From Candidatus Marinacidobacterales bacterium (GTDB lineage: Bacteria; Acidobacteriota; Vicinamibacteria; Marinacidobacterales; DATDRI01): DNA of 64,000 bases. How positions within the stretch are numbered: the first letter of the stretch is position 1; the number at the start of each line of letters is the position of its first letter. The position numbers and the translations under genes were made by a program. A model generated the notes under the pieces. It was not told the DNA's origin. It made no database searches and saw only the letters and a list, made by a program, of their open reading frames with translations. Location of the stretch: contig OZ245365.1 of assembly GCA_965226495.1 (NCBI GenBank), positions 2,976,001-3,040,000 of the forward strand. The letters are read 5' to 3'. Below are positions 36,535 through 44,381 of the stretch, piece after piece.

Positions 36535-37662
36535 ATGCCTTATACGCGTAGGTCGTTCCTAAGAAGCCTTGGCGCCACGGCCGCATTCGCCCACTCGGCC
36601 CGCGCGCATGCGACCGTGAGTAGTGAGCTCGAAGAGCTCCTCTCGAAAAGCATTGTCATCGACGCCCTATCTTACTTGCACCGCAACCCGGATGTTCGGG
36701 GGGCGGACCATTCGACGCTGGATCTGCCGATGCTCGAGGAGTCTGGGATCACGATGGTCAGCCCGACCACCGACCGTCGGACGGCTAGCCCCGACGGCGC
36801 CTATCATGACGCGCTGAAGCGTCTGGCCGAGATTCAGAGCATCGCAGCCCGTTATCCGGACCGCATGATGCTGATACGCACCGGCTCCGACATCGAGGCC
36901 GCTAAGAGAGAGAACAAGGTCAGCGCCCTCCCCAACTTTCAAGACACCACCGCCATCGGGACCGACCTCTCGAACCTCGACGTCCTCTTCGATCTCGGCG
37001 TCCGCCAAATTCAGCTCACCTACAACTGGCGGAACCTGGTGGGCGATGGTTGCTTGGAGAGAACCGGCGCCGGCTTGAGCTACTTCGGAGTCGAGCTCGT
37101 CGAGCGAATGAACGAACTGGGGATCGCAGTCGACGTCTCCCATAGCGGGCACCAAACGAGCATGGACGCTATCGAGGCCTCGACCAAGCCGATCTTGTTC
37201 ACGCATACCAACTGCAAGGCCATCTACGACCATCCTCGCAACAAGTCCGACGAGGCGATTAAAGCTCTCGCGAAAAAGGGCGGCGTGGTGGGCATGACGC
37301 TCCTAAGCTGGTTCATCAGTGAAAACTCGCCGTCGACGCTCGATGACCTGCTCGACCATTTTGATCACGTCATTCGTCTGGTAGGACCGGACCATGTTGG
37401 TATCGGCTCGGACATGGGATTGCCCGGCTGGCGCGTGACCGAGCCTGATCAGATCTGGGAAGCCGTGAAAAGCGGCTACTCCGCCCGTTCCTGGGACCTG
37501 GTGCGTCCCAAGTACCCTCCGTTTATCGCGGCCATCAACGACGCGCGTCGCTACCTCACCATCGCCGAGGGCCTACAAAGACGCGGACACTCGCTCACCG
37601 ACATTCAAAAGGTTCTGGGGCTCAACTTCCTTCGAGTCTACAAGGAAGTTCTTCCCAGCTAG
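36535..37662 (+). CDS. Membrane dipeptidase (peptidase M19), Tat-exported
   Basis: TRRSFL; QLTYN, DVSH, FTHTN, HPRNKSD, HVGIGSD. Confidence 0.9.
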   Translation: MPYTRRSFLRSLGATAAFAHSARAHATVSSELEELLSKSIVIDALSYLHRNPDVRGADHSTLDLPMLEESGITMVSPTTDRRTASPDGAYHDALKRLAEIQSIAARYPDRMMLIRTGSDIEAAKRENKVSALPNFQDTTAIGTDLSNLDVLFDLGVRQIQLTYNWRNLVGDGCLERTGAGLSYFGVELVERMNELGIAVDVSHSGHQTSMDAIEASTKPILFTHTNCKAIYDHPRNKSDEAIKALAKKGGVVGMTLLSWFISENSPSTLDDLLDHFDHVIRLVGPDHVGIGSDMGLPGWRVTEPDQIWEAVKSGYSARSWDLVRPKYPPFIAAINDARRYLTIAEGLQRRGHSLTDIQKVLGLNFLRVYKEVLPS

Positions 37663-37757
37663 CCCACTTTCCTACGCGATCCTCTTCAGGACGAGCTGCG
37701 CCGTCGAGCGCTAGTCTAGGTTGACTTCGGCAGTGGTGCCAAGGACAATAAGGCGCC

Positions 37758-38195
37758 ATGCGTTGCCGACTGTTTCCGATCGTGATTGCCAGTCTCCAAA
37801 TCGCCGCGCTCATCCTCTTCTCCGTCCTCACTCCTCTTGCCCATCTCCACCAGAGCGGCACGGCACCGTCGCATTTTCGCCAGGTCGGCGCGGGCCACGA
37901 AGCCCATCCCGCAGCCACTTTCCACTCGCACTTTGAAGATCACCACGCAAGTGAGGACCACGGTCGGGACTCCGATGGTGACGACGCGGAAGACGCGCTC
38001 AGCCTTTCGCACGGCAAGATCGACGCGCCGCGCGTCAAGCAGTCCGACGAGCAGCCGCTGGTCGTCGCATCGAGTATCGAGGCCGCTCGCCCCTCGACCC
38101 AGGCGTCTTGGGCCCTATCCGTTCCGAGCCAAGACGCCCACGGGCCGCCCCATCCCTTTCTAATACCAGCCCGCGCTCCCCCCTCCTTCTCCTAA
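37758..38195 (+). CDS. His-rich exported leader protein with C-terminal RAPP motif (DUF2946-like)
   Basis: N-terminal hydrophobic helix, AHLH, FHSHFEDHH...DH, and ending PARAPPSFS; directly upstream of the metal efflux operon. Confidence 0.75.
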   Translation: MRCRLFPIVIASLQIAALILFSVLTPLAHLHQSGTAPSHFRQVGAGHEAHPAATFHSHFEDHHASEDHGRDSDGDDAEDALSLSHGKIDAPRVKQSDEQPLVVASSIEAARPSTQASWALSVPSQDAHGPPHPFLIPARAPPSFS

Positions 38196-38205
38196 CGAGC
38201 TGCAA

Positions 38206-38242
38206 GTCTGCCTTCGTCAAGGCAGGCATTCTTCTTGTTTCC
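38206..38242 (+). terminator. Hairpin plus U-rich tract (terminator/attenuator-like) between leader ORF and efflux operon
   Basis: GTCTGCCTT-cgtc-AAGGCAGGC followed by ATTCTTCTTGTTTCC. Confidence 0.55.
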
Positions 38243-38283
38243 ACGCCCATCCCGGGCTCGCCGCCCGGATCGGAAGGAGGCGC

Positions 38284-39624
38284 ATGTCCACAAAGTTAAC
38301 GTTCGAACGAGGTTTTGGAGCAGCCCCTCGTAGAAGACTGGGTTCGCTGCGGCCGGGCCCTCTCATCCTCGGGATCCTGTTCACTGGAACCGTCATCCCA
38401 TCGGCCCGGTCGCAAGAGCCATTCCGACGGGTAACACTCGAACAAGCGCTCCAGATGTTTGAGGAGAACAATCTCGAGCTCCGTTTGGTCATGGCCGAGC
38501 GGGACGCGGCGGCCGGCCTCGCCCGGCAAGCCAGGGCGCACCCGAACCCAGTGGCCACGGTCACGCATGAAGGCCTGTCGGAAAGTGGCGCGGACTACTC
38601 AGAAAGTTATTTTCTGGCCAGCCAGCGCTTGGAATGGCCTGGCCACCGAGACGGGCGGATCGCGAGCTCGGACGGGGAAGCTGCCGTTGCCAGAATCCGC
38701 GCGGACGCCGAACGCCTGCGACTGACATTCGAAGTCAAGCGGAGCTTCTTTCAGGCAGCGGCTGCCGAAGAGCAGCTCGTCGTTATCGAAGGAGTCCGCG
38801 ACGTTTTTCGCACCGCGGAGGAAAGCGGTGGCCAGCGGTTTCGAGAAGGCGACCTCTCGGGCTACGACGCTCGCCGAATTCGAATCGAGCGAGCACGTTA
38901 CGAGATCCTCGCGGCGTCCCAAACGATCGCCCTCCGCAACGCCCGACTCTTGTTCGCCTCCCTCGTTCTCTCCGACTCTTCCGACGAAGGGCCTCCCAAC
39001 GTTGCGCCCTCCGCAGTGCCGGAGGGCTCTCCGCCTTCCATCACGGATCTCGACGAAGAAGTGGCCATCGAGCACGCTTTCGAACGGCGGGGCGAGATGC
39101 GAAGCGCCAAGGCGCAGATAGCCGCTGCCGAAGGCTCCGTGCGTCATCGTTCCTCCTTGCGTTACCCCGACGTGACCCTGACGGGGGGCTACAAAAGGCA
39201 ATCCGACGGTTTCGACGGTTTTTTCGTGGGAGCAAGCCTCCCTGTTCCCGTTTTTGATCAAAGGCAGGGCGATGTCGAAGCCGCCGAGGCCCGACTTCGC
39301 ACCGCAAACGCGCATTTCGCTCTGACGCAACGTACCGTCGCGAACGATGTCCGAAGAACCTTCTCCACGTATCTATCCCTCTCCGAACGCGCCGCATTGA
39401 TCCGTGACCAGCTTCTGAGCGGCGTCGACGATTTGCTGCTTATCGCGAGAGTGAGCTATGGCGAGGGTGAGATGTCGCTCTTGGAGCTCCTCGACGCCGC
39501 GAAGGCATATCGCGAGTCTCAGATCGCTTTCTCGGAGCTGACGTCGGAGCTCTGGATTCGTTACTACGACCTGGAACGGGCAATGGGAGGATTTTCATCC
39601 GTTTCATTGGAGGACCAACCATGA
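38284..39624 (+). CDS. TolC/CzcC family outer membrane efflux protein
   Basis: TLEQAL, HPNP, SLPVPVFDQRQG, SYGEGEMSLLELLDA. Confidence 0.9.
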   Translation: MSTKLTFERGFGAAPRRRLGSLRPGPLILGILFTGTVIPSARSQEPFRRVTLEQALQMFEENNLELRLVMAERDAAAGLARQARAHPNPVATVTHEGLSESGADYSESYFLASQRLEWPGHRDGRIASSDGEAAVARIRADAERLRLTFEVKRSFFQAAAAEEQLVVIEGVRDVFRTAEESGGQRFREGDLSGYDARRIRIERARYEILAASQTIALRNARLLFASLVLSDSSDEGPPNVAPSAVPEGSPPSITDLDEEVAIEHAFERRGEMRSAKAQIAAAEGSVRHRSSLRYPDVTLTGGYKRQSDGFDGFFVGASLPVPVFDQRQGDVEAAEARLRTANAHFALTQRTVANDVRRTFSTYLSLSERAALIRDQLLSGVDDLLLIARVSYGEGEMSLLELLDAAKAYRESQIAFSELTSELWIRYYDLERAMGGFSSVSLEDQP

Positions 39625-41141
39625 AGGCCATAACGGCAATGAAGGCGATTGGGCCCCGACTGCTGGCCCTTACCATGTTGGTCCTCGCGACGAGCATGGT
39701 AGCGTGCCGGGACCAAGCGTCGTCCAGCGAAGCAACGGAAGACCACGAGCACGGTGGCGGGGCGGCGATCACACTTTGGACCGAGAGCGTCGAGCTCTTC
39801 TTCGAGCATCCGCCACTGATCGCCGGAGAGCCCGGGGAGCCCTGGGGCATCCACCTAACCTTTCTCGATGATTTTCAGCCAGTGCGAGAGGGCAAATTGA
39901 CGCTCCGTTTCGTCGGAGCGAATCGAAGCGAGCACGCGGCTGTCGCGGAAGCTCCGGCACGAGAGGGCATCTTCACACCGGCTCCCTCGCTAGCCGATGC
40001 CGGCGTATACCGTCTATCGATGACGCTCGAAAGCCCGAGAGGTGTTAACGAGATTCCCGTCGGTGACATCACCGTTTTCGCATCGAACGCCGAGCTTCCC
40101 CACCTGGAAGAAGCCTCCAACGCGGGCATCTCGTTTCTCAAAGAGCAGCAGTGGACGATCCCCTTCGCCACCGCTCGAGCCACCGAGCGAAACATCGCGC
40201 ACTCGATCGCCGCCAACGGTGAAATCCTCCCCGTGCCGACCGCCATGGCGCGCGTGAGCGCGCCGGTCGAGGGTCTTGTTGGGGAAGAGCGCGACCTGCG
40301 GACGCCCATCCCCGGTACCTGGGTGGAAGCGGGTGCGCCTCTGGTCGTTTTATCTCCGGTGCCTCAGGAAAACGCCTTTGCCGCCCAGCGCGCGCGAGTC
40401 CAACGGTTGGAACGCGAAGTAGCGCGTGCGGAACGGCTGCACGCCGCAGAGGCCATCCCTGAGAAGCGGCTGGTCGAGGCGCGCCATGATCTGGCCGTCA
40501 GCCGCGCCGCGCTCAACGCCGTGGGAGGGAGCAGCGAGGATGGATATGCGCTGACGCTGCGGGCCCCCATCAGCGGTCTCGTCATCGAACGAAATGTGAC
40601 CCTTGGCGAGCGGGTGTCGGCCGGTGAAGTGCTCTACACCATCGTGGATCCCAGCACCATGTGGGTCCGCCTTCAAGTGCCCGCCCGCGAGGCATCTCGC
40701 GCCTCGGAGGCCACCACAGCATCATTCACCGTGGAAGGAAACGCGCGACTTTACCAGTCCGAGCGGATCGTCTCGGTGGGAGCTGTCATCGATCCGACAC
40801 GGCGAACGCTTCCGGTGATCGCCGAAGCGCGGAATCGAGACGGAAGTTTGAAGGTGGGCATGCTAGTCGAGGGGCGGCTCTTCCTTGCCGAGACGGCCCC
40901 TGGTATTGCGATCCCAAGCCGCGCCGTCCGCAACGAGGACGGCCTGAACGTCGCCTACGTGCAACTCGGCGGCGAGAGTTTCGAGCGCCGAGTGCTCACG
41001 CTCGGGCCCTCGGATGGTGAGTGGACTCAGGTAATGAACGGCCTCCGCCCCGCGGAACGCGTGGTCACCCAAGGTGCCTACCAGGTTCGCCTGGCGTCGC
41101 TCAACGCCGCGGAGATCGCGGATCACGGACATCCTCACTAG
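39621..41141 (+). CDS. RND efflux periplasmic adaptor (CzcB/CusB-like) with extra N-terminal domain
   Basis: Lipobox MVAC, DHEH, LRAPISG, LKVGMLV, C-terminal DHGHPH. Confidence 0.9.
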   Translation: MKAITAMKAIGPRLLALTMLVLATSMVACRDQASSSEATEDHEHGGGAAITLWTESVELFFEHPPLIAGEPGEPWGIHLTFLDDFQPVREGKLTLRFVGANRSEHAAVAEAPAREGIFTPAPSLADAGVYRLSMTLESPRGVNEIPVGDITVFASNAELPHLEEASNAGISFLKEQQWTIPFATARATERNIAHSIAANGEILPVPTAMARVSAPVEGLVGEERDLRTPIPGTWVEAGAPLVVLSPVPQENAFAAQRARVQRLEREVARAERLHAAEAIPEKRLVEARHDLAVSRAALNAVGGSSEDGYALTLRAPISGLVIERNVTLGERVSAGEVLYTIVDPSTMWVRLQVPAREASRASEATTASFTVEGNARLYQSERIVSVGAVIDPTRRTLPVIAEARNRDGSLKVGMLVEGRLFLAETAPGIAIPSRAVRNEDGLNVAYVQLGGESFERRVLTLGPSDGEWTQVMNGLRPAERVVTQGAYQVRLASLNAAEIADHGHPH

Positions 41142-41264: not shown

Positions 41265-44200
41265 ATGGAACCCAACATGTTGGATAGGATCATTCGGTGG
41301 TCTCTGCAGAACCGGCTGGTGACGCTCTTTGGAGCAGGGGCGGTGCTGGCCGGCGGTATCTATGCCGCGGCGACGATTCCCATCGATGTGTTTCCCGACC
41401 TGACCGCGCCTACGGTCACCGTTCTGACCGAGGCCCACGGCATGGCCGCCGAGGAGGTCGAGCTCTTGGTCACATTCCCTATCGAGACGGCAGTGAATGG
41501 CGCCGCCGGTGTCAGGAGAGTGCGCTCGTCGTCCGCTCAGGGTATCAGCATCGTCTGGGTCGAGTTCGACTGGGGGGAGGAGATCTATCGGGCGCGTCAG
41601 ATCGTGGGTGAGAAACTTCAGACGCTGACCGCCCAGCTTCCCAGCGGGATTGGTCCACCGGTTCTCTCCCCCATTACTTCCATCATGGGCGAGATCTTGC
41701 TGGTAGGCATCACGAGTCGCCTGCACTCTCCCATGGAAGTCCGAACCGTTGCCGACTGGACCGTTCGCAAGAGGCTACTCGCTGTCCCCGGCGTGGCGCA
41801 GGTCGTTCCGATCGGAGGGGCCGTCAAGCAGTACCAAGTGCTGGTTCACCCCGCACGACTTGGGCTCTACAAGGTCGGGCTCGATGAGGTACTTTCTGCG
41901 GCCGAGCGTTCCAACGCCACCGCGTCGGGAGGTGTCTATCTAGACAGCGGACAGGAGATCCTGATCCGGGGCCTGGGCAGGGTGCGGACGCTTGAAGATA
42001 TCGAAAAGACCGTGGTGGGCCTCGCGGACGGCGTGCCGGTTCGTATCGGTGATGTCGCTGACGTGAAAATAGGCCCCAAGCCTCGCTTCGGCACCGCTTC
42101 GGTGAACGCCGAACCGGCGGTCGTCCTCTCCATCCAGAAACAGCCCAGTGCGAACACATTGGATCTCACCGAGCGGATCGACGAGGAGCTCGTCCGCCTG
42201 CAGAAAACCCTTCCCGAGGGAATGGAGATCGACCGTGGGATCTTCCGGCAGGCCGACTTCATTTCCCTCGCGATCGACAACGTCGTCGCCGCGCTCCGCG
42301 ACGGTGCTCTTATGGTGGTCGTCATCTTGTTCCTCTTCCTCTGGAACTTTCGCACCACTGCCATTTCCGTTCTCGCCATTCCGCTCTCGCTCGCTATCGC
42401 CGTCATCACCATGTTGCTGCTCGGAATCACCATCAACACTATGACCCTCGGCGGCATGGCAATCGCCATCGGGGCGCTGGTAGATGACGGGATCATTTTC
42501 GTCGAGAATGCGTTTCGACGCCTTCGGGAAAACTGGCACCTTCCCGAGAGCGAGCGGAAGGCGGCGCTTTCAGTTGTTTATGATGCGGCGAGAGAGATCC
42601 GCGCACCAATCCTCAAAGCAACCGTCATCATCTCCATTGTGTTCGTTCCCCTCTTCTTCCTCTCCGGAGTGGAAGGCCGTATGCTCCAGCCTCTGGGCTT
42701 CGCTTACATCGTCAGCATTCTGGCATCCCTGGTGGTAGCGGTTACCGTGACTCCGGTGCTCAGCTTGTTCCTCCTCACCGATGCCCGCTTTCTGGGTAAG
42801 CAGCGAACGAGCTGGCTGGAGGAACACTCGAAGCGGGCGTATTCGCGGGCGCTAAAGGTCGTCATGAGACATCCCAACGCGGTGACGTTTGCTGCGGCCC
42901 CGCTGGTGGTGGCGACCCTCGCCGTCTTCCCTTTCTTGGGACGGGGCTTCTTGCCGGAGTTCCAAGAGGGAACGCTCACTGTCTCCGCGGTGACCACGCC
43001 TGGAACGGGAATCGATGAGTCGGACGAGCTCGGTCGTCTGGTCGAACGAAAGATGCTCCAACACCCCGCTGTCGTTTCCACGGCGCGACGCACCGGTCGC
43101 GCCGAGCTCGACGAGCACGCCCAAGGAGTGAACGCCGCGGAGATCGACGTGCTTCTCGATCCGTCCAAAGGAGAGCTCGCCGAGATCATGGACGAGCTTC
43201 GAACTCGTCTCGCCGCCGTTCCCGGAACCAACATCACCATCGGTCAACCCATAGGCCACCGCATCGATCACATGCTCTCCGGCACACGCGCCGCGATTGC
43301 GGTCAAGATCTTTGGACCGGATCTCCATGAGCTCCGCCGCGTCGCGGAATCTGTGCGGGAAGCAATCCAGGATGTACCGGGGGTGGTCGACTTAGCGGTC
43401 GAGCAACAGGCCGACGTGCCGCAGCTTCGCATCGTGGCGAACCGTGACGCCATGAGCAAATACGGGGTCACACCCGGAAGCCTCGCCGATACGATCGACG
43501 TCGCCTTCTACGGTGAGCCAGTGAGTCAAGTGCTGGAGGGACAAAGTGCCTTCGATCTGGTGGTCCGCTTCGATGAAGCACACCGTGGAAGTGCGGAGAA
43601 AATCAGGAACGTCGTTTTGGGTACGCCGCTCGGCGTACAAGTCGAGCTGGGCTGGCTTGCCGAGATCTCGGAAGGTCGAGGGCCGAACAACATCAGCCGT
43701 GAGAACGTTCAGAGAAAAATCGTCGTGCAATCGAACGTGAGCGGCAGAGACGTGGCGAGCGTCGTCGAAGATTTCCGTCGCAACATTGAAGCGAGTGTCG
43801 TTATTCCGGACGGCTACTATGTAGAGTACGGTGGCCAGTTCGAAAGCGGTGAGGCCGCCGCGCGCGCGATCACCATCCTTTCTGCAGTGTCCATTCTCGC
43901 TATCTTCCTTGTTCTCTATCAGGAGTTCCACAGTGCCCGGACGGCCGCCCTCATCATGGTCAACCTACCTCTAGCACTCATTGGCGGGGTGGGGGCATTG
44001 GTCGCCTCGGGAGGCATGCTGAACGTGGCGTCCCTGGTCGGCTTCATCACGCTTTTCGGCATCGCGGTGCGAAACGGGATCCTGCTGGTGAGCCACTACA
44101 ACCGCTTGATCTCCGAAGGCGAACCTCTCCGAGAGGCGGTCTTCCGCGGTTCGCTCGAACGGCTAAACCCGATCCTGATGACGGCCCTCACCACCGCACT

Positions 44201-44381
44201 CGCGGTGATTCCCCTCGCTATCGGCGGTGGCGAGGCAGGCAAAGAAATCCAGGCCCCGATGGCCGTCGTCGTTCTGGGCGGACTTCTGAGCTCGACCGCG
44301 CTGAACATGGTGGTCGTGCCGGCCCTCTTCCTACGTTACGGACGACCTGCCCGAGCGGCAGACGTGCTCGGCGATGCGTAA
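41265..44381 (+). CDS. CusA/CzcA family heavy-metal RND efflux permease
   Basis: IDVFPDL, MTLGGMAIAIGALVDDG, RLNPILMTA; 1038 aa. Confidence 0.95.
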   Translation: MEPNMLDRIIRWSLQNRLVTLFGAGAVLAGGIYAAATIPIDVFPDLTAPTVTVLTEAHGMAAEEVELLVTFPIETAVNGAAGVRRVRSSSAQGISIVWVEFDWGEEIYRARQIVGEKLQTLTAQLPSGIGPPVLSPITSIMGEILLVGITSRLHSPMEVRTVADWTVRKRLLAVPGVAQVVPIGGAVKQYQVLVHPARLGLYKVGLDEVLSAAERSNATASGGVYLDSGQEILIRGLGRVRTLEDIEKTVVGLADGVPVRIGDVADVKIGPKPRFGTASVNAEPAVVLSIQKQPSANTLDLTERIDEELVRLQKTLPEGMEIDRGIFRQADFISLAIDNVVAALRDGALMVVVILFLFLWNFRTTAISVLAIPLSLAIAVITMLLLGITINTMTLGGMAIAIGALVDDGIIFVENAFRRLRENWHLPESERKAALSVVYDAAREIRAPILKATVIISIVFVPLFFLSGVEGRMLQPLGFAYIVSILASLVVAVTVTPVLSLFLLTDARFLGKQRTSWLEEHSKRAYSRALKVVMRHPNAVTFAAAPLVVATLAVFPFLGRGFLPEFQEGTLTVSAVTTPGTGIDESDELGRLVERKMLQHPAVVSTARRTGRAELDEHAQGVNAAEIDVLLDPSKGELAEIMDELRTRLAAVPGTNITIGQPIGHRIDHMLSGTRAAIAVKIFGPDLHELRRVAESVREAIQDVPGVVDLAVEQQADVPQLRIVANRDAMSKYGVTPGSLADTIDVAFYGEPVSQVLEGQSAFDLVVRFDEAHRGSAEKIRNVVLGTPLGVQVELGWLAEISEGRGPNNISRENVQRKIVVQSNVSGRDVASVVEDFRRNIEASVVIPDGYYVEYGGQFESGEAAARAITILSAVSILAIFLVLYQEFHSARTAALIMVNLPLALIGGVGALVASGGMLNVASLVGFITLFGIAVRNGILLVSHYNRLISEGEPLREAVFRGSLERLNPILMTALTTALAVIPLAIGGGEAGKEIQAPMAVVVLGGLLSSTALNMVVVPALFLRYGRPARAADVLGDA

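Follow-up and report, generated by a model that had tools for sequence, protein, structure and literature searches.

The locus and its leader gene

The DNA analysed in this work, referred to below as the window, is a stretch of 64,000 nucleotides (nt) from a Candidatus Marinacidobacterales bacterium (contig OZ245365.1 of assembly GCA_965226495.1). It contains a small leader gene whose product ends in the motif RAPP, followed by the genes of a heavy-metal-efflux pump of the resistance-nodulation-division (HME-RND) type, the first of which encodes the outer-membrane efflux protein (OEP). The positions of the genes and of the elements within and between them are given in Table 1. The leader is probably a cis-acting nascent-chain metal sensor of the CutF/CruR type, in which arrest of the ribosome at RAPP would be read by the intergenic RNA, most likely by unmasking of the Shine-Dalgarno (SD) sequence of the OEP gene.

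Table 1. Features of the leader and pump locus, in window coordinates
Feature	Position	Strand	Remarks
Promoter, sigma-70 type, TTGACT-17 nt-GACAAT	37721-37749	+	Ends 8 nt before leader ATG
Leader gene	37758-38195	+	145 amino acids: N-terminal anchor/signal helix, His motifs, RAPP, 3 residues, stop
Hydrophobic N-terminal helix, residues 5-27	37770-37838	+	Preceded by Arg2 and Arg4; predicted by AlphaFold2
His29-x-His31 (PLAHLHQ)	37842-37850	+	Directly after the helix; invariant in 17 of 17 aligned proteins
His56-x-His58-x3-His62 (TFHSHFEDH)	37923-37943	+	Invariant in 17 of 17 aligned proteins
Alternative anti-SD CCTTTC	38155-38160	+	Pro133, Phe134 and Leu135 codons; complements GGAAGG at 38272-38277
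RAPP codons, Arg139-Pro142	38172-38183	+	Kept in 28 of 28 loci
Anti-SD of the preliminary description, CCTCCTTC	38182-38189	+	Nt 2-3 of the Pro142 codon, Ser143 and Phe144 codons
Hairpin 1 with pyrimidine/T-rich tail ATTCTTCTTGTTT	38206-38240	+	Stem 38206-38227, 9 pairs, 4-nt loop
Hairpin 2, CCGGGC-UCGCC-GCCCGG	38252-38268 (core)	+	Just 5' of the SD
SD of the OEP gene, GGAAGGAGG	38272-38280	+	GGA(A/G)GG in 25 of 25 close loci
TolC-family OEP	38284-39624	+	ATG at 38284; PF02321, E = 2e-37
Periplasmic adaptor, HlyD/CzcB/CusB-like	39621-41141	+	PF16576, TIGR01730; start overlaps OEP stop
Heavy-metal-efflux RND permease, CusA/CzcA family	41265-44381	+	TIGR00914, 823.9 bits (cut-off 701.45)

The leader protein starts with MRCRLFPIVIASLQIAALILFSVLTPLAHLHQ, ends in PARAPPSFS before the stop codon, and contains 13 His residues and one Cys (Cys3). 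An earlier preliminary description of the window had given its anatomy as a hydrophobic N-terminus, a His-rich part and a RAPP end, and this was confirmed by sequence and translation. In the AlphaFold2 model, which was built with the family alignment, the N-terminal helix was the sole confident part (block values of the per-residue confidence score pLDDT of 73-92). The remainder of the leader had pLDDT of about 50-65 and was without secondary structure, and the whole model had a mean pLDDT of 58 and a global score (pTM) of 0.22. The predicted disorder outside the helix is as expected for a nascent-chain sensor and not for a folded domain. The Pro at position -3 of a possible PLA/H cleavage site argues for an anchor that would stay uncleaved. 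The RNA data amounted to small parts in two metatranscriptome runs: a single contig of 198 nt (run X19) corresponds to leader-internal positions 37782-37979 with no mismatch, which is too little to judge expression, and a second piece maps to a dipeptidase gene upstream of the leader. The pump genes had no coverage in these runs, and no weight is given to this.

The three genes downstream of the leader encode an OEP, an adaptor and a permease, which is the composition of a heavy-metal-efflux RND operon of the CusCBA/CzcCBA type, and their Pfam and TIGRFAM domain matches bear out the CzcCBA-like operon named earlier. Both termini of the adaptor are rich in His, with ...TEDHEHGGG... close to the start of the protein and ...ADHGHPH as its C-terminal sequence, and this would fit a pump for divalent metals. 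Neither a transcription factor nor a two-component system turned up among the six proteins of the locus and the 15 ORFs (open reading frames) of at least 150 codons that were scanned between 27 and 55 kb; these were 15 of the 44 listed ORFs of that size, the remainder being mostly overlapping or on the opposite strand, and smaller ORFs were covered only at the locus. Within this set, the claim that no metal regulator is adjacent was thus upheld.

Conservation of the leader family

A word-indexed search of 5.8 billion proteins returned only the leader itself and one relative at 74% identity. HMMER, run exhaustively against 1.84 billion representatives, returned eight proteins at E ≤ 0.001, all of them unnamed or 'hypothetical'. 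By six-frame searches of genomes from the same order, the leader was found in 10 of 55; by family, it occurred in 4 of 7 further genomes searched from the window's own, and in 5 of 19 and 0 of 28 from the two others. A six-frame search of a sample of the phylum gave 3 of 401 genomes, the window's own included, and a metagenome scan added 17 further leader loci. The search for related loci used a nine-row alignment. Altogether 29 leader loci were examined, one of which (L055) is cut off and unreadable at the C-terminal motif; the counts of this motif are based on the other 28. The counted loci include L009/L028 from genome G007, which is flagged as unpublished; no result rests on G007 alone.

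The motif R(A/G)PP lies near the C-terminus in all 28 readable loci, as RAPP in 26 and as RGPP in two (L005 and L029). The distance from the motif to the stop codon is exactly three residues in 26 of the 28, with four residues in L029 and one in L030. RAPP is likewise present in eight of eight database homologues, down to about 30% identity, and five of these have three residues after it, the other three having 4, 7 and 11. The residues H29, H31, H56, H58, H62, P131, R139, P141 and P142 are invariant in the 17-protein alignment, and the motifs under constraint are PLAHLHQ, TFHAHLDGH and ISHGxLDxPR. A chance ORF is excluded by homologues at 29-75% identity, by indels that are all in frame, and by the invariant residues. 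Judged by this comparison of sequences, the ORF at 37758-38195 is a real conserved gene.

It was reported that proteomes avoid RAPP and RGPP as motifs that impede translation (PMC12992588). The window's genome agrees with this avoidance: in its ORFs of at least 300 codons, RAPP was observed 10 times against 30 expected (about 3-fold depleted) and RGPP 6 times against 27 expected (about 4-fold depleted), and AAPP was not depleted (47 observed against 39 expected). A crude genome-wide scan for small ORFs with a hydrophobic N-terminus and a terminal R(A/G)PP gave five matches and no second leader of this type. The matches were the leader, one 65-aa (amino acid) ORF and three identical copies of a 141-aa ORF (G000:C1 2312802-2313227 on the minus strand, 2713920-2714345 on the plus strand and 4062316-4062741 on the minus strand). 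The 141-aa ORF carries RAPP 11 residues before its end; its copies probably belong to a repeated mobile element and have no relation to the leader.

The conservation also bears on the possibility that the mature protein acts in trans, as a membrane-anchored, His-rich periplasmic binder, chaperone or regulator comparable to CzcI of Cupriavidus. RAPP and the hairpins would then merely tune expression, and hairpin 1 would be a partial terminator that sets the stoichiometry of leader to pump. CzcI of Cupriavidus metallidurans is a small protein with His residues whose gene immediately precedes czcCBA, in the same place as our leader; it was suggested to be a metal-sensing regulator and was grouped with CutF-like proteins (PMC9973294). 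Moreover, the constraint extends over the entire leader and is not confined to its C-terminus, and the adaptor also has His-rich ends. On the other hand, CzcI, compared here by description only, lacks a C-terminal proline motif although it is counted as a CutF relative, and both CutF and CopL are described as inactive in trans (PMC9973294). In our family, a motif that proteomes avoid (PMC12992588) is nevertheless invariant and stands three residues from the stop codon in nearly all loci, and the protein is predicted to be disordered except for its anchor. A trans-acting role is accordingly judged quite improbable.

Searches of Pfam and NCBIfam with the leader protein gave no match, and the only Rfam match in 37600-38400 was a meaningless one to a long non-coding RNA (E = 0.62, 18.8 bits against a gathering score of 80). 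The nearest clusters in the ESM Atlas, which serve as leads only, were unnamed proteins of 135-156 aa from Nitrospirota and a Bacteroidota cluster of which 35% carries DUF6769. One long homologue from a metagenome (P0006, 265 aa), the sole one that appears fused, has an N-terminal extension of 118 residues, and its HxH region is replaced by unrelated residues; it looks like an artefact of gene calling or a frameshift and not like a fusion. Literature searches found no paper on this leader family, although the supplementary lists of PMC9973294 and PMC12992588 may hold members.

A conserved promoter at the start codon

The promoter scan found two sites where 0.1 were expected, with agreement at 9 of the 12 consensus positions. 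The pattern TTGAC(T/A), a spacer of 17 nt and xAxxAT, ending 6-9 nt before an in-frame GTG or ATG, recurs in all 28 loci (27 by regular expression and L045 by eye). The start codon is GTG in 26 loci and ATG in three, the window being among the latter. The sequence 5' of the -35 element is unrelated between loci, with nothing conserved there. Because the promoter is kept and the sequence beyond it is not, the operon appears to have its own near-consensus promoter. The spacing between promoter and start codon implies that the mRNA begins with the start codon or no more than 1-2 nt from it, and the leader mRNA should therefore be leaderless or nearly so. This conserved promoter, at 37721-37757 and in the same place in L002-L010, L029, L030 and L039-L054, was not mentioned in the preliminary description. 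Together with the lack of a nearby regulator gene, the leader's own conserved promoter counts in favour of a leader that acts in cis.

Intergenic hairpins and a possible transcriptional read-out

The gap between the leader and the OEP gene is 88 nt in the window and 86-103 nt in the 25 close loci, and in these the order of elements is fixed: stop codon, hairpin 1, a pyrimidine/T-rich tract, GC-rich hairpin 2, SD and ATG. Both hairpins had been placed between the anti-SD and the SD in the earlier work, and both were found again. Hairpin 1 resembles an intrinsic terminator and begins 10 nt past the leader stop codon; each of the 23 distinct intergenic regions retains its core. The simple criteria for a terminator (a GC-rich stem followed by a U run) hold for 14 of these 23, a set that includes L029 and L030, and in several other relatives a longer imperfect stem is followed directly by a T run. 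The base of hairpin 2 can be extended, and a sequence of the TTTCC type then pairs with the 5' half of the SD. Over both hairpins in the 23 distinct sequences, 78.6% of the cells could pair against 74.4% in shuffles (none of 500 shuffles reached the observed value), and 25-54% paired in slid registers, so the register is specific. Some covariation was also present: changes on both sides were seen in 14 cells, where 7.6 were expected. Since the sequences are related, kinship inflates these figures of pairing and covariation, and the conservation of the hairpins is taken as support and not as proof. The distant members L029 and L030, from the same class, have the same spacing of promoter and start codon, and in them hairpin, pyrimidine tract and SD follow one another as in the other loci, within an intergenic region of only 65 nt; their SD (GAGG) faces a CCTC within the intergenic region and not leader codons.

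These features could also belong to the same sensor with a transcriptional read-out, in which arrest controls termination at hairpin 1 and its T-rich tail, or termination by Rho as in CruR. The preliminary description gave the terminator-like hairpin no part in its model. A ribosome that reaches the stop codon would meet the foot of the terminator stem and permit read-through, whereas a ribosome held at RAPP, 12 nt further back, would let the terminator form; metal would relieve the arrest, with the same sign as in CruR, and so switch the pump on. The position of the hairpin 10 nt past the stop codon, its retention in all relatives, the 14 of 23 regions that satisfy the terminator criteria, the long imperfect stem with a T run in several others, the specific register and the covariation all speak for such a read-out. 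The promoter without a 5' leader in 28 of 28 loci would keep the first ribosome near RNA polymerase, and the arrest in CruR works on termination and is relieved by copper (PMC9426467). Furthermore, the accessibility of the SD is nearly constant with and without a stalled ribosome in the folding models described below. Hairpin 1 is, however, the sole terminator-like site in 37400-38600, and since shuffled sequences yield a mean of 0.9 over this 1.2 kb, one match is at the level of chance. The window's tail has only a moderate content of U, the geometric argument is itself conjectural, and the single RNA datum, the 198-nt contig within the leader (37782-37979), cannot show a 3' end. Heavy masking of the SD is also left unexplained by termination. 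This transcriptional read-out is considered rather unlikely.

Predicted masking of the Shine-Dalgarno sequence

The read-out that we prefer is unmasking of the SD. The exact complementarity noted earlier between CCTCCTTC at 38182-38189 and GAAGGAGG at 38273-38280 was reproduced, and when the region was folded, this anti-SD was paired with the SD around both hairpins in the minimum-free-energy structure of 38160-38300. The energy of this fold is -46 kcal/mol against -36.3 ± 3.7 kcal/mol for shuffled sequences (z = -2.59; 2 of 200 shuffles as good). The SD is predicted to be paired in 23 of 23 distinct relatives, with a mean unpaired probability of 0.02-0.32. By comparing the partners of the SD in these sequences, the main one was the segment from RAPP to the stop codon in 11, a segment 18-23 nt upstream of the presumed P site in eight and a mixture in four; in 19 of the 23 sequences the main partner falls within the final 22 leader codons. 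The second segment contains the alternative anti-SD of Table 1, which is located 18-23 nt 5' of the presumed P-site codon and forms a consensus helix in RNAalifold. A third candidate lies inside the intergenic region and flanks hairpin 2.

The two helices differ in how specific their registers are. For the helix of CCTCCTTC with GAAGGAGG, 81% of the cells can pair in the 23 sequences against 79.9% in shuffles, and 115 of 500 shuffles reach this value; in registers slid by -1 and +3, 77% and 75% of the cells pair, and the helix is absent in L004 and L005. For the upstream helix at 38155-38160, 93.5% of the cells pair against 44-72% in slid registers. A test by synonymous recoding of the leader was also made. 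In the window, the anti-SD is stronger than in 98% of the recodings (-16.5 against a mean of -10.7 kcal/mol); in the family, the mean percentile is 0.32, and where one segment is weak, the other is often strong. There is thus a hint that some masking by the leader's end is selected for, although kinship among the sequences has to be borne in mind. Thus masking of the SD is, according to the folding predictions, conserved in the family. The specific switch between CCTCCTTC and GAAGGAGG proposed in the preliminary description is a plausible one in the window and in the relatives nearest to it, and is not established family-wide: the paired state of the SD held in every sequence, while the particular helix did no better than shuffles and was the main partner in fewer than half of them.

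Comparison with CruR, CutF and other arrest peptides

The closest parallel in layout is CruR (Bp2923) of Bordetella pertussis, an exported protein of 145 residues from the DUF2946 family with a CxxC motif and RAPP at 139-142, three residues from its end (PMC9426467). Its RAPP arrest prevents Rho-dependent termination before the copper-repressed gene of a TonB-dependent transporter, and copper relieves the arrest; the regulation is described as post-transcriptional and RAPP-dependent (PMC9426467). The window leader also has 145 aa, RAPP at 139-142 and a targeting helix, and heads a metal operon. CruR, however, senses copper with its CxxC and heads an uptake operon behind an intergenic region of 162 nt, whereas the window leader has no conserved Cys and five invariant His, and heads an efflux operon behind 88 nt with a masked SD. 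HxH and HxHxxxH are invariant in the leader family in place of CxxC. The nearest invariant His to the arrest motif, H62, is 76 residues before R139, compared with a spacing of about 45 between metal motif and RAPP in DUF2946. The semi-conserved ISHGxLDxPR ends 46 residues before R139, and Tyr or Arg takes the place of its His in 4 of 17 proteins; in three more this His is unaligned.

The window leader is not filed under DUF2946, because the model of this family failed to match and CxxC is missing. A six-frame search of the genome with PF11162 (DUF2946) gave no match at E up to 10, and among 17 members of the leader family there was a single match (E = 0.011), below significance. Other genomes from the window's class do contain canonical-looking leaders of the Cys type (L056, L057, L060, L061, L062, L067 and L069), which have the helix, HxH, CxxC and R(A/G)PP followed by 1-4 residues; L057 contains two such ORFs about 1.1 kb apart. 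The Pfam cut-off for DUF2946 was exceeded in only 3 of 151 genomes, so most Cys-type leaders are missed by that model.

CutF of Rhodobacter capsulatus is a co-translationally exported protein of fewer than 150 aa with a C-terminal proline stalling motif, and metal bound to its exported nascent chain lengthens the stall, which melts a structure in the RNA by which the next gene's ribosome-binding site is kept shielded (PMC9973294; bioRxiv 10.1101/2025.02.05.636593). The accompanying survey collected 5,334 CutF-like proteins, whose commonest downstream neighbour is the OEP gene of an RND metal pump (PMC9973294). The window leader shares with this group its length of 145 aa, PP at 141-142 and an OEP gene that follows on the same strand after 88 nt; RNA structure over the downstream ribosome-binding site is predicted, and its partner is not unique. 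CutF itself differs in having a Cys motif and a PPP-type motif that is sensitive to elongation factor P, and in controlling a multicopper oxidase. The CutF-like clusters with His only (14 and 17) adjoin HupE/UreJ genes and not RND pumps, and the main text of the survey contains no mention of Acidobacteria (PMC9973294).

Small secreted or membrane proteins with a C-terminal RAPP or RGPP upstream of a regulated gene are also known from ApdA, ApdP and a set from Streptomyces lividans (PMC7897499; PMC10951233; PMC12992588). Those that were tested regulate Sec/YidC or actinobacterial copper genes, whereas the genes downstream of the window leader encode the OEP, the adaptor and the HME-RND permease. 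A survey from 2025 placed RAPP/RGPP small secreted proteins upstream of metal-homeostasis genes and proposed sensing by conserved Cys or His; the words 'efflux', 'RND' and 'TolC' do not occur in its main text (PMC12992588). ApdA and ApdP likewise combine an N-terminal targeting helix with a C-terminal RAPP (PMC7897499; PMC10951233), and the leader could accordingly be a monitor of secretion or insertion like SecM, ApdP or MifM, whose arrest reports the capacity of Sec, the signal recognition particle or YidC and couples synthesis of the pump to it. The downstream genes are those of a metal pump and not of Sec or YidC components, and the five invariant His would have no role in such a monitor, which makes this explanation very improbable. 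By analogy, the window leader is most likely a His-only variant that works like CutF or CruR.

A model for metal sensing by the nascent leader

We hypothesize that transcription starts from the constitutive-looking consensus promoter essentially at the start codon of the leader, and from this leaderless start it follows that the first ribosome would trail RNA polymerase closely. The N-terminal helix would direct the nascent chain to the membrane, and the N-terminus would stay inside. Arrest would occur with peptidyl-RAP-tRNA on the P-site codon at 38178-38180 and Pro-tRNA on the A-site codon at 38181-38183, a geometry borrowed from the structures of ApdA and ApdP (PMC10951233). The five invariant His are 79-112 residues before the stall site and should therefore be outside the ribosome and the translocon at arrest; residues up to about 80, and hence all five His (29-62), would then be located in the periplasm. 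A divalent metal held by these His would set the duration of the arrest, and its binding would lessen the export pull and prolong the arrest, as was proposed for CutF. The arrested ribosome would cover the last five codons and abut the structured intergenic RNA of 88 nt, and its presence would keep the pyrimidine-rich end of the leader from masking the SD of the OEP gene, so that the operon is on. The present analysis documents the anatomy of the locus, how well it is conserved and the pairing that is predicted; the arrest, its dependence on metal, the direction of this dependence and the RNA element that reads it out are inferred here.

Several results weigh against this model. The direction of control is a guess, since CutF and CruR respond oppositely to copper, which strengthens stalling in the former and relieves it in the latter (PMC9973294; PMC9426467). 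The terminator-like hairpin suggests that the read-out may be transcriptional instead. With regard to descent, PF11162 gave no match to the window protein at E up to 10, the window leader has no CxxC and no Cys column is conserved in the 17-protein alignment. The hhalign comparison of the leader family with seven acidobacterial DUF2946-like leaders was weak (probability 29.5%, E = 5.7e-4) and spans 34 N-terminal columns only, that is, the helix and HxH. The metal cannot be named from the pump either, because the permease is equally close to the solved structures of CusA (485.8 bits) and ZneA (482.7 bits).

The RNA evidence adds further points on the same side. No covariation was found in the anti-SD helices of the 23 sequences, the pairing of CCTCCTTC and GAAGGAGG for which the preliminary description had looked to homologous loci included; as the SD is invariant, there is no room for covariation. 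The SD's partners are pyrimidine tracts of low complexity, which can pair with it in more than one register, and the intergenic RNA alone already masks the SD (median unpaired probability 0.25). Blocking of the footprint of the stalled ribosome barely frees the SD in equilibrium folding: the median unpaired probability is 0.11 in the free RNA, 0.12 with a ribosome at RAPP, 0.12 with one at the stop codon and 0.13 with a stalled and a collided ribosome, while for the window alone it rises from 0.02 to 0.22. The earlier statement that a stall at RAPP frees the ribosome-binding site is thus not predicted by these calculations, in which the SD stays paired, and folding with stalled, terminating or collided ribosomes did not discriminate between the read-out models. 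By comparing all these results with the translational metal sensor first put forward for this DNA, the parts that stood are the conserved RAPP, the invariant His, the masked SD and the lack of a regulator; the part that did not is the specific anti-SD switch.

A more detailed version of the model is possible, if doubtful. The leader would be a His-only sensor of divalent metals (Zn, Co, Ni or Cd and not Cu(I)) for an HME-RND pump without a protein regulator, translated from a leaderless mRNA by a ribosome coupled to RNA polymerase, with a dual read-out through a terminator and a multiply masked SD, in a lineage distinct from DUF2946.

Implications

Heavy-metal RND pumps are textbook cases of control by two-component systems or by regulators of the MerR/ArsR type. 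At this locus, and in a small family so far confined to marine Acidobacteria and metagenomes, the sensor appears instead to be built into the first peptide that is translated, and there appears to be no such regulator. The principle is already published for CruR and CutF and in the surveys of 2023 and 2025, and the known concept is unchanged. What is new here is the all-His set at an HME-RND pump, the lineage in marine Acidobacteriota, the conserved leaderless promoter and the terminator-like element, and the CutF/CruR principle would thereby be extended from Cys and copper to an all-His ligand set beside a czc/cus-type pump. Leader ORFs of this kind are now annotated as 'hypothetical protein' or are not called at all, and the features described here provide a rule for their annotation. 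The promoter, the leader and the intergenic RNA form a compact module of 530 nt, which is suited to cell-free work. If it is true, the His-only circuit with dual read-out would be the first of its type for a czc-type pump and for Acidobacteriota.

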